DNA of 64,000 bases. Source: Tubiluchus corallicola (Eukaryota > Animalia > Priapulida). Below are positions 21,201-24,200 of the stretch, piece after piece. Both the position numbers and the translations under genes were made by a program. Positions within the stretch are counted from its first letter, which is position 1, and the number at the start of each line of letters is the position of its first letter. Location of the stretch: assembly GCA_030141605.1 (NCBI GenBank), contig JAQGDQ010002368.1, forward strand, positions 124,001 to 188,000. Reading direction: 5' to 3'. The notes under the pieces were generated by a model, which worked only from the letters and a program-made list of their open reading frames with translations, was not told the origin of the DNA and did not search any database.

Positions 21201-24200
21201 GTGTTAGGTTTAGTATTCTTGGTTATCTTAGAATTTTTTAAAGTACACACTTTTTTGAATTTTGCAGAGGCAGGATAAAGCATTTGGATGTTGTAGCTCT
21301 GCTGAGAAAGATTCAGCCTCCGCTTGGCTTCGGGAAGCTATGCCCGCATCGTGTCGCATGCAAGGTGTGCCATTTTTAAACACGAAATACAGTTTGTAGA
21401 AAAACAATTTAGAACGGGTTAATCTGATGTCATTAGTATGACAAAGCAAATTTGATTTTCATAGACCATAGGCCAAAATATGTAAGACCATCATAGTTTA
21501 GTGTTTAAACATAAATGACACTGCAATTTCAGTCAGTTTCACATATTAGCAAGCCACAGTGTGAAATAAGTTTGTGTGTTTTTATTGTCACTGCTTTCAG
21601 TTTGAACATAGAAACTCTGAACACTACTTTTTGTCTTTGAATTGTAGAGATTGGTTTCCATGAACATGCCTCTAAACAGTGATGGTACAGTTATGTTTAA
21701 TGCGACGCTGTTTGCTTTGGTGCGAACTTCTCTGCGAATATTTACAGATCGTGAGTAGTACATGTTTTACTAATTTGATTTTAGGCTTCATTAAACGCAT
21801 GAAGAATATTGGTCACGAGTTGTTTGTGGAACATTTAATTGAATCAAATACGTGCCATCTCAATGGGAGTTAACATCTTTCAATCTGCTTGATGGTGAGA
21901 TTTTCATCACTGGGCATCATTATTAATATTTTCTACATACTCCATGCACTGAAACTTTGTAAATAGATGTCATAATCGTCTATACCTGTGCTGTGTCATA
22001 GATCGTTCTTCTTTACACACAAATACATAATTATCACTGTTTTGCATCATGTGTTTTATTTGTAAATGAGATCTTTAATTATCAGTGAGATTTACTTGCG
22101 CAAGATATAGTTGATCGAAATAGTTGATTGATTTCTTTCACGCTTTAAGTAATAAAATTGGATATGTGTGCGATTAAAACTATTCCTGTGTTTGCAAACC
22201 AAAACCGTCCATAAGTCAGCATAGTTAAAATTACGTAGAATGCACCAAAACTTTGGTCAAATGAATAACATTTATATTTCTTTTTGTTTCAAGCTAATCA
22301 AACTCCGGACGACCTGAATGAGGGTCTGCGCTATGTCATCAAAAAGGTTTTCAAATTTAAAAATCAGAAGAAGCTGGACCAGATTGTGCCTCCACCTGGT
22401 GGTAAGATGTGCACATTTTTTGTATATGTATGCTAAAAAGGGTACTTTACTAAAAATTTAGTAAAATGAGTTTGCTATATGCATTTAAATTTGTTTGTTT
22501 TCTTTAAAATTGTTCAGGAAACGTGAGTATAATAAATAATGCATTAAAAGTTGAAAATATGGTTTACAGTAACAGCTTTTTAGTGTTCCTGAATTTCCTG
22601 GAAAAAAAATTATCCCAAGAAAATGCGGCTAGTATTCGGAATTGCCTTTCTAAGGTCTTCACCATTACTATCTACTTCAGGAACTAAGTCAATACTTGTT
22701 AAAGTGATGTATGCTGGTTTAATAAAATGTTGTTAGCAGACATAGTTAGTGGTTTTTTCTCATTGTTTCTTCCCACTAGTTACATCTATCAGTTGTAAAA
22801 ACTCGACAGCATCTAAAATATGCATTTTGAAGGTATGTCATAGCTTGCAGAAATTTGGTCATTTGTACATTTACATTAACATCACCGAGTCACATTTTCT
22901 TATGCAGTTCGCTACATAAATCTCGGATGCTTCTTTGCCGTATATTTGCTGCAAGATTGGGTGCGACTTCACCTGCGGCGGAGAAAGGCACGGCTGGAAG
23001 CTGCCATACTCGATGGAGACCTGGATGTCCTGGCAAAGTATCCGGCCTATGCTCCACTCTTTTCGGTAGGTTTTGCATAACGAACCCACTCATTAACCCT
23101 CGTTTGCTTTTATTTAGTTGAGAGCGAGGTTACAGTGGGGATGTTCTATGCCACGTTTCTCATCCAGGATTACTTTCGTCGCTTCAAGAAGCGCAAGGAG
23201 AATAGGCTAAAGCAGGGCCTAACTGGCGCACCGGTCAGCGCGGGAGTTGCTCTTCAAGTGAGTTTCTGGCAAAAGATAGTTAGCCTGTAGACTACTAGGT
23301 GGCATGCTTGTTTATCTATGCTGTCAGGCTCCTTTCAATGCTTTCTAATGGCAGTAGATTTACTGAACCCTTAGCCAACATTTTAGCCAGATCAGCAATT
23401 TTAGCTTTTTTGTTTTGCTTTGTTTGCATTCTTTCTTCATTTCCTTTCTTGTGTGAAGCTGACTTCTTGCAACTTTAAGCACAGAATTTCTGCTCACCTT
23501 TTTCTCTGTGATTCTGTGATGGTAGCGTTGCGATTTTCCATTATTATGACTGTTGCTACGATGCTAGCAAAGTATCGTAAAAACTTATATAATAATGACT
23601 ATTGTGAAATGGCTTAGTGGTAACATCTGTTTTGATATACGTATTTTTACTGGCACAATATACATGTAGAGACGTACATTTAAAATAGTTAGATTTTATA
23701 AAACATATGTTGAAGTAATTGCAAGCTAACATGAAACATGCATTTAAAACAGTTGCAAACTAACCTTTACACACACGAAACCAATTAGAATCTAACTAGT
23801 CTTCAATTTTCAGAGAAAATTTTGCCCAGTTATTTTGCGTAAACTGTGACTTTGGTTAGATTGGCTACAAATTGGAACACGCATTATTGATCCGCAATCA
23901 CTCATACACACGACAGTATAGTTCATAAACAGTGACGAGCTGAACTGACAATGTTGAAAAAGCTACTTGCAGAGCTTCAAAGCCACATCAAGCATAACCT
24001 AATACAGCTCAGAATGGTTGTACTGTCTTTTTTAAAAAAAATCATATTTTTCGGCTTTGTGTGCCATCAACTGATATAAATTACCTGATAGTTATCCCTT
24101 TCAAAATATTCATCATGTATTTGTGCTGGTACCTGGTCACTACATTTCGTGGTAAAAACAATGTGTTTTTTGCTATTGTTATTGCATTTTGCTGTAGTCT

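Follow-up and report, generated by a model that had tools for sequence, protein, structure and literature searches.

Can the calmodulin-binding IQ module of a calcium channel be exchanged as a unit, by splicing within a single gene? This question is raised by a stretch of 64,000 nucleotides (nt) from the priapulid Tubiluchus corallicola (contig JAQGDQ010002368.1, positions 124,001 to 188,000 of the forward strand; hereafter the window, numbered from its first letter), whose first 31 kb carry, on the plus strand, the 3′ five-sixths of a Cav1 alpha-1 channel gene. A reading of the bare letters, made before any database search (hereafter the sequence-only reading), had proposed that a divergent second IQ exon lies upstream of the canonical one and takes its place by mutually exclusive splicing. 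The two exons are paralogous, with matching phases, intact splice sites, constraint of a coding type and a frame that is kept by either-or use only. We hold it probable that this old, divergent tandem copy is spliced one-for-one in place of the canonical exon, which would give a full-length channel with a predicted weaker binding of apo-calmodulin and less calcium inactivation; that the two are mutually exclusive, counting also a form in which the alternative exon replaces two exons, appears quite likely. Thus, a duplicated exon under coding constraint, in an anatomy permitting either-or use only, is what stands of the earlier proposal, while present-day splicing of that exon is something we infer from the genomic letters.

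The region is laid out on the plus strand as follows. Both IQ exons share an upstream partner, the pre-IQ exon (22294-22401), which ends in phase 1, and the 716-nt intron after it holds the alternative exon (22908-23065, 158 nt, phases 1/0), with an AG acceptor, a GTAGGT donor and, ahead of it, a CATTAAC that could serve as branch point (22874-22880). This exon consists of an IQ-like core (about 22916-22996) and a tail (about 22997-23065) that is either unrelated or similar to the next exon. A spacer of 52 nt (23066-23117), containing the weak donor, an in-frame TAA at 23078, a second CATTAAC at 23091-23097 and a pyrimidine tract, separates it from the canonical IQ exon (23118-23257, 140 nt, phases 1/0), which matches Pfam Ca_chan_IQ (PF08763) with 30.8 bits. 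The two CATTAAC motifs are two of only four in the window's first 31.4 kb. These coordinates, signals and phases are as the sequence-only reading had given them, and the same goes for its placing of the second CATTAAC some 30 nt from the donor (the branch A falls at +31) and for its shortest ordinary intron of 116 nt, reproduced over 31 traced introns in an exon set that is incomplete. Downstream, the alternative form would join, or possibly skip, the next exon (24529-24639, 111 nt, phases 0/0), which we take to be of PCRD type by its position and its motif; the following exon (25105-25232), starting in phase 0, offers a second in-frame acceptor. The PCRD of Cav1.3 is likewise encoded directly after the IQ exon (PMC3234942).

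That the alternative unit and the canonical exon share an origin is indicated foremost by a block of 27 residues that aligns between the two without gaps, with 10 of 27 identical and a BLOSUM62 score of 60. The earlier alignment is hence reproduced, and its score is reached by none of 3000 shuffles (0/1000 of shuffled introns and 0/2000 of the exon's own letters); no other place in the window scores above 30. When the alternative peptide was searched against the PDB, the only two matches at E<=10 were both Cav1.2 IQ peptides (E 1.3); in Pfam it falls in no family, Ca_chan_IQ included. The DNA of the two exons is 48% identical, with proportions of synonymous and nonsynonymous differences of 0.75 (pS, saturated) and 0.45 (pN), and 7 of the 10 shared residues are written with different codons. 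On these comparisons the alternative unit is a true paralogue of the canonical IQ exon.

That it was long held under protein-coding constraint emerges from a neutral simulation, in which the canonical exon, chosen as stand-in ancestor since its core is invariant, was evolved to 48% nucleotide identity 20,000 times. The observed protein score was kept in none of these runs (mean 5.5), the 10 identities in 0.86%, freedom from stops in 9.2% and a GC content of at least 0.52 in 0.05%. By codon position the GC content is 0.67/0.38/0.54 in the alternative and 0.59/0.39/0.63 in the canonical exon, as against 0.33 in the introns, of whose windows 1.5% are as GC-rich as the alternative exon. The sequence-only reading had also pointed to the absence of stops: the exon is indeed open, but this is weak evidence alone, since all three plus-strand frames, and two on the minus strand, can be read without a stop across most of its length. 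As judged by such sequence statistics, the unit has long been under protein-coding constraint.

The frame is kept open into the next exon when either IQ exon is used singly; double inclusion, retention of the spacer and skipping of both exons each lead to an early stop, which bears out the earlier claim that including both exons shifts the frame. A donor-to-branch distance below 50 nt is a published criterion for steric exclusion, used for human exon pairs (PMC5740500), and with the sole branch-like motif in the spacer the predicted branch A would sit at a distance of 31 nt from that of the alternative exon. A steric block by the spacer is therefore likely. Taken as a tandem pair, the two units are adjacent homologous exons on one strand, of like phases, each in frame by itself and with a bar to double inclusion. 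Exclusivity would then follow from the close branch point, with decay of frameshifted products as a backup, and the canonical exon would be the usual choice owing to its stronger donor. What might tip the choice is a predicted RNA hairpin (23085-23139, -24.5 kcal/mol), in which the spacer's branch motif and pyrimidine tract pair with the opening 22 nt of the canonical exon and the acceptor AG sits in the loop. It is the strongest fold among the gene's 36 acceptors (0/200 shuffles as strong), and under a stricter control by synonymous recoding 3 of 3000 sequences fold as strongly. Lying over the canonical acceptor, the hairpin might shift the choice to the upstream exon in certain cells; we treat this predicted structure as a lead for the switch, and not as a result. 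For long-range pairing of the docker/selector kind, nothing stood out among 25 listed of the 33 inverted repeats in 22294-24700.

Splice-site matrices built from the gene's own 33 acceptors and 31 donors score the alternative acceptor at 6.3 bits, an ordinary value that 3.5% of 1361 decoys attain, and the canonical one at 5.1 bits. A sequencing run, X1, which is DNA since introns are covered, adds a contig that bridges 22964-23430; because this contig links the two exons, the tandem layout did not arise from a mistaken join in this assembly. It differs from the window at two sites of the canonical exon, each of them synonymous, and at none in the 154 nt made up of 102 nt of the alternative exon and the spacer. 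X1 covers the region from 22964 onwards, thus leaving out 22908-22963 and with it most of the IQ-like core, and it may be related to the source sample. Elsewhere, the introns of the gene vary between sequenced copies by both substitutions and indels. A second run, X2, taken as RNA by guess, gave eight matching records, none on a Cav1 exon within 19400-25300.

Several observations weigh against the one-for-one exchange of IQ exons. The alternative donor is weak at 4.5 bits, only 4 of the gene's 31 donors scoring lower and 8.8% of 1658 decoy GTs scoring as high, and the pair is unequal in length (158 vs 140 nt), with tails that do not align. The nematode Caenorhabditis elegans splices introns near 40 nt (PMC4165533), and a spacer of 52 nt is therefore no certain block in every ecdysozoan. 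The hairpin was noticed after the fact and, when its intron part only is shuffled, 28-44 of 3000 sequences fold as well, which is not significant across 36 acceptors. The zero differences in 154 nt of the X1 contig are not significant either (P about 0.1), the other seven listed X1 pieces differing at about 1.4% (28 of 1937 letters). Identity by codon position within the core (14/15/10 of 27) shows a gap that is as large in 20% of the neutral runs, hence again not significant. Constraint seen in a paralogue pair is a record of past selection and says nothing of present use. No relative of the alternative peptide was found, in searches with little power to pick out a short exon within a long protein: none of 21 candidates came in at E<=10 (proteins of 92-2000 residues) and none of 1.84 billion representatives at E<=0.001, while matches in an Atlas search were uninformative, recognition lying below threshold. 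A metagenome locus considered as a relative was rejected as a chance 15-residue match on a contig of 64% GC. Finally, the closest protein found, a single model from Priapulus caudatus, contains only the canonical IQ exon.

The unequal tails give room for a different arrangement, in which the alternative unit is an IQ duplicate joined to the terminal part of the next exon and replaces two exons, splicing from 23065 to 25105 and yielding an isoform that has the changed IQ and also lacks the PCRD core. Its tail weakly resembles the end of exon 24529-24639 (LDGDLDV vs ISGDLEV, with a proline four residues before each donor), a likeness equalled by 142 of 10,000 shuffles in local alignment, by 41 of 10,000 when anchored at the end and by 124 of 5000 against a profile of 62 relatives. 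That exon is also the best match to the tail among 34 exons, whereas the 23-residue tail is quite unlike that of the canonical exon (6897 of 10,000 shuffles are as good); joins to 24529 and to 25105 are both in phase 0, and splice forms without the PCRD exist in vertebrate Cav1.3 (PMC3234942). However, the match was noticed post hoc, spans seven residues and leads the other exons by a narrow margin (24 vs 21), and the arrangement requires an extra deletion event together with coordinated skipping of two exons; we regard it as unlikely.

The same low probability attaches to the alternative exon being a former working exon that is now silent, i.e., a pseudo-exon retired too recently to have decayed. 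The weak donor would fit this, the age of the selection cannot be dated from a comparison of paralogues, and no relative was found. On the other hand, the frame, splice sites, branch motif and exon-like GC content are all intact while the introns of the gene vary between copies, and the absence of differences in the 102 covered nt points, weakly, in the same direction. Quite improbable is that the exon mainly makes truncated or decay-targeted transcripts, by read-through as far as the TAA at 23078, or by removal of the 52-nt spacer with an out-of-frame join to the canonical exon. The weak donor, which is moreover predicted to be base-paired, would be suited to this, as would the fact that exon, spacer and canonical exon lie in one frame with a single TAA, and the short introns of nematodes; truncating splice forms of the IQ region, both IQ-less and short-tailed, are known from Cav1.3 (PMC3234942). 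Nevertheless, neither 23066-23117 nor 23258-24528 contains an AATAAA or ATTAAA for a terminal exon, the shortest of the 31 traced introns is more than twice the spacer's length at 116 nt, and an exon made only for decay would not need conservation of 27 residues at the protein level. Chance resemblance or an assembly artefact, for which the blank in Pfam, the E-value of 1.3 and the several open frames might be cited, is largely refuted by the shuffles, by the matching position, strand and phases and by the bridging X1 contig, and a haplotype duplication by copies that lie too far apart with DNA only 48% alike; we give it next to no credence.

If the alternative exon does replace the canonical one singly, its effect may be predicted from the residues that it changes. 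Numbering from the central isoleucine of the IQ motif as 0, the differences are Y-5>F, F-2>Y, I0>L, Y+3>W, F+4>V and F+7>H, among which I>L, Y>W, F>V and F>H are exactly those the sequence-only reading had named, while F-6, Q+1, D+2, R+5 and R+10 are kept. The six aromatic anchors we take to be those at -6, -5, -2, +3, +4 and +7, and by this count four remain aromatic in the alternative peptide. Six aromatic contacts are described for a crystallised IQ peptide (PMC3634016). The general IQ consensus, (I/L/V)QxxxRxxxx(R/K) (PMC8491939), is present in the alternative peptide as L0, Q1, R5 and R10, and AlphaFold renders its residues 5-43 as one helix, though as a prediction from a single sequence this is weak evidence. 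The alternative helix may still dock calmodulin, with the consensus and the three upstream aromatic positions surviving, whereas I0>L, F+4>V and F+7>H would retune the side facing the C-lobe.

In Cav1.3, Y-5 and F+4 serve as anchors for apo-calmodulin, and baseline inactivation is weak without them; together with F-2 they also bind the distal inhibitory tail of that channel (PMC8054141). The central isoleucine has the strongest effect on C-lobe inactivation, even as the affinity for Ca2+/calmodulin is hardly altered in Ile-mutant IQ peptides (PMC4035741), and a comparison of the two peptides by isothermal titration calorimetry therefore needs to include apo-calmodulin. Because I0 becomes leucine and the apo-calmodulin anchor F+4 is lost, the alternative isoform is predicted to retain calmodulin engagement in weaker form, with reduced calcium-dependent inactivation. 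The earlier suggestion of another EF-hand partner becomes less likely than altered calmodulin binding, as the IQ consensus is intact. The contacts of STAC overlap the IQ (PMC8258685), and other partners could therefore be affected too.

The IQ exon is not the only one in this gene with a tandem copy. When 34 exons were scanned against their flanking introns, only two duplicate pairs were found, with scores of 115 and 48 (the next best being 34 and 32). The other pair encodes the end of the last transmembrane segment of repeat IV (IVS6) and the start of the EF-hand region, the first copy lying at 19689-19816 (128 nt) and the second, more consensus-like one, after a spacer of 58 nt, at 19875-20002 (128 nt), both on the plus strand. 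It differs in 3 of 42 residues, with a pS of 0.70 (near saturation) and a pN of 0.05, and is likely to be mutually exclusive. Its layout is like that of the IQ pair, and both pairs fall in the calmodulin-regulatory tail. One might go further and suppose that splicing reprograms the whole calmodulin machine, with a hairpin-gated IQ swap and loss of the PCRD exon in step with the EF-hand pair, so as to free the channel largely from calcium-dependent inactivation; this extended scheme we find doubtful. Separately, a MetaClust Cav1 model (P0123) contains the IVS6/EF exon twice, with differing residues, and no PCRD-type exon after the IQ; since a long C-terminal block is likewise present more than once, the model may be faulty. 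It hints that the IVS6/EF exon is duplicated in other animals too.

How unusual a divergent IQ would be can be gauged from a survey of 432 Cav1 proteins, which yielded 366 invertebrate segments with a pre-IQ anchor (175 survey segments came from 212 members of 20 clusters, at most 15 being listed per cluster). The canonical core is present within one substitution in 365 of the 366, and no divergent IQ was found among them, the survey having been seeded by canonical-IQ searches and thus being biased towards the canonical form. In one protein, from the mite Dermatophagoides farinae (KAH9527036.1), an in-frame deletion of 11 residues removes the IQ, through mis-annotation or an alternative acceptor. 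Published alignments likewise have the Cav1 IQ nearly identical from cnidarians onwards (PMC3634016), and in the available text of a further account the calmodulin anchors are broadly conserved and no alternative IQ exon is mentioned (PMC8980814).

A parallel might be struck with the tandem-duplicated exons of Cav genes, for which ten independent events are reported in human and fly (PMC9741552). The exclusive pairs of the alpha-1 genes (human CACNA1C/D and CACNA1A/B/E; fly Ca-alpha1D, cacophony and Ca-alpha1T) are like events in the same gene family, the difference being that no IQ-exon event is named in the accessible text of that report (PMC9741552). While exon duplication is thus familiar from Cav genes, we found no description of it at the IQ exon. 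To our knowledge, none of the ten human and fly events maps to the IQ exon. In fly cacophony the exclusive pairs concern IS4 and the I-II loop (PMC12370356); in the I-II loop pair, too, the exchanged part is a helix that binds a partner, and 16 of its 39 residues are identical, yet the binding residues are kept, whereas the IQ pair here alters several. The sequence-only reading knew of no described precedent, and a literature search found none for a mutually exclusive Cav IQ exon, most subscription journals lying outside that search.

A second parallel is with vertebrate Cav1.3, where calmodulin feedback is changed at the IQ by RNA processing, i.e., by A-to-I editing, by an alternative acceptor or skipping of exon 41 and by the short forms 42A and 43S (PMC3234942, PMC4035741). 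The outcome there is a change of one residue or two, or loss of the IQ along with a shortened tail; in the present gene, the exchange would bring in an entire second IQ helix that differs at 17 of 27 residues, and the tail would stay in frame. A third is with the natural IQ variants of Cav1.1 and Cav1.2, which differ in calmodulin behaviour, Cav1.1 having four unique IQ residues including His1532 (PMC8491939), and among Cav1.1-1.4 inactivation can be anything from minor to robust (PMC3634016). That divergence arose by gene duplication and involves few changes, whereas here it would lie inside one gene and be far more extensive. If true, an invertebrate reaches by exon duplication a diversity of feedback that vertebrates obtained via gene duplication and editing, and one gene yields a natural, selected IQ variant for dissecting the contacts of apo-calmodulin and Ca2+/calmodulin. 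An IQ with a third of its positions identical, if kept by selection, amounts to a natural experiment on which contacts calmodulin needs; the alteration of C-lobe-side residues with the upstream aromatics kept bears on why IQ mutations blunt inactivation without a change in Ca2+/calmodulin affinity (PMC4035741). This significance is bounded by the single, obscure lineage, by the commonness of duplicated channel exons and by the indirect way in which use of the exon is deduced.

The identity of the gene itself is plain. From the four repeats to GPHH/EF, the IQ and the distal tail, its exons follow the order of a Cav1 (L-type) alpha-1 gene, with Pfam matches to GPHH, Ca_chan_IQ and CAC1F_C (the EF-start and tail exons scoring below the curated cut-offs) and with Cav1.2 and Cav1.3 as the best PDB matches. 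Among 669 proteins matching the canonical IQ exon, the top one by far is Priapulus caudatus XP_014661450.1, with 89% identity over the exon, and by tblastn it is collinear with the window exon by exon. Among 275 long Cav1 proteins, it comes first by summed score over 28 exons (2048 bits, the next having 1855), with 72% identity; in 12 of the 28, including the pre-IQ, the IQ and the next two, no other protein scores higher. By these matches the gene would come from a priapulid other than P. caudatus, or from a near relative. No other priapulid protein is named among the best 120 of the 669 matches, nor among the best 120 of 2038. The two priapulids have in common an unusual methionine at position -7 of the canonical exon, where the other 364 canonical-core segments have lysine and the alternative exon has cysteine; in Cav1.2 this lysine contacts alpha-actinin.

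A few further features of the window may be recorded. Within the Cav1 gene, the intron after exon 4057-4282 apparently opens with GC at 4283 (a non-canonical GC-AG donor), and two GC-rich intronic stretches (50-58%; 9869-10172 and 26430-26680) have open frames with no Pfam match and are probably repeat fragments. Beyond it, an exon of a neighbouring gene (62353-62652) has a weak match to the PAN/apple domain (E 0.003, below the cut-off), and minisatellite arrays occupy 32031-33137 (unit about 37 nt) and 39775-40227 (unit about 28 nt), the unit lengths being taken from self-alignment offsets. Two inverted copies of a retrotransposon resembling a long interspersed nuclear element (47575-52399 and 53616-58436; 4.8 kb, 98.9% identical), whose motifs read as a zinc-knuckle ORF1 and an endonuclease/reverse-transcriptase ORF2, flank a gap of 848 N (52400-53247) and are possibly an assembly artefact. 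Outside the window, a giant-virus bin in IMG/VR (L002:559-1008) encodes, by a viral gene or through contamination from a host, a full calmodulin of 149 residues that is close to animal calmodulin.

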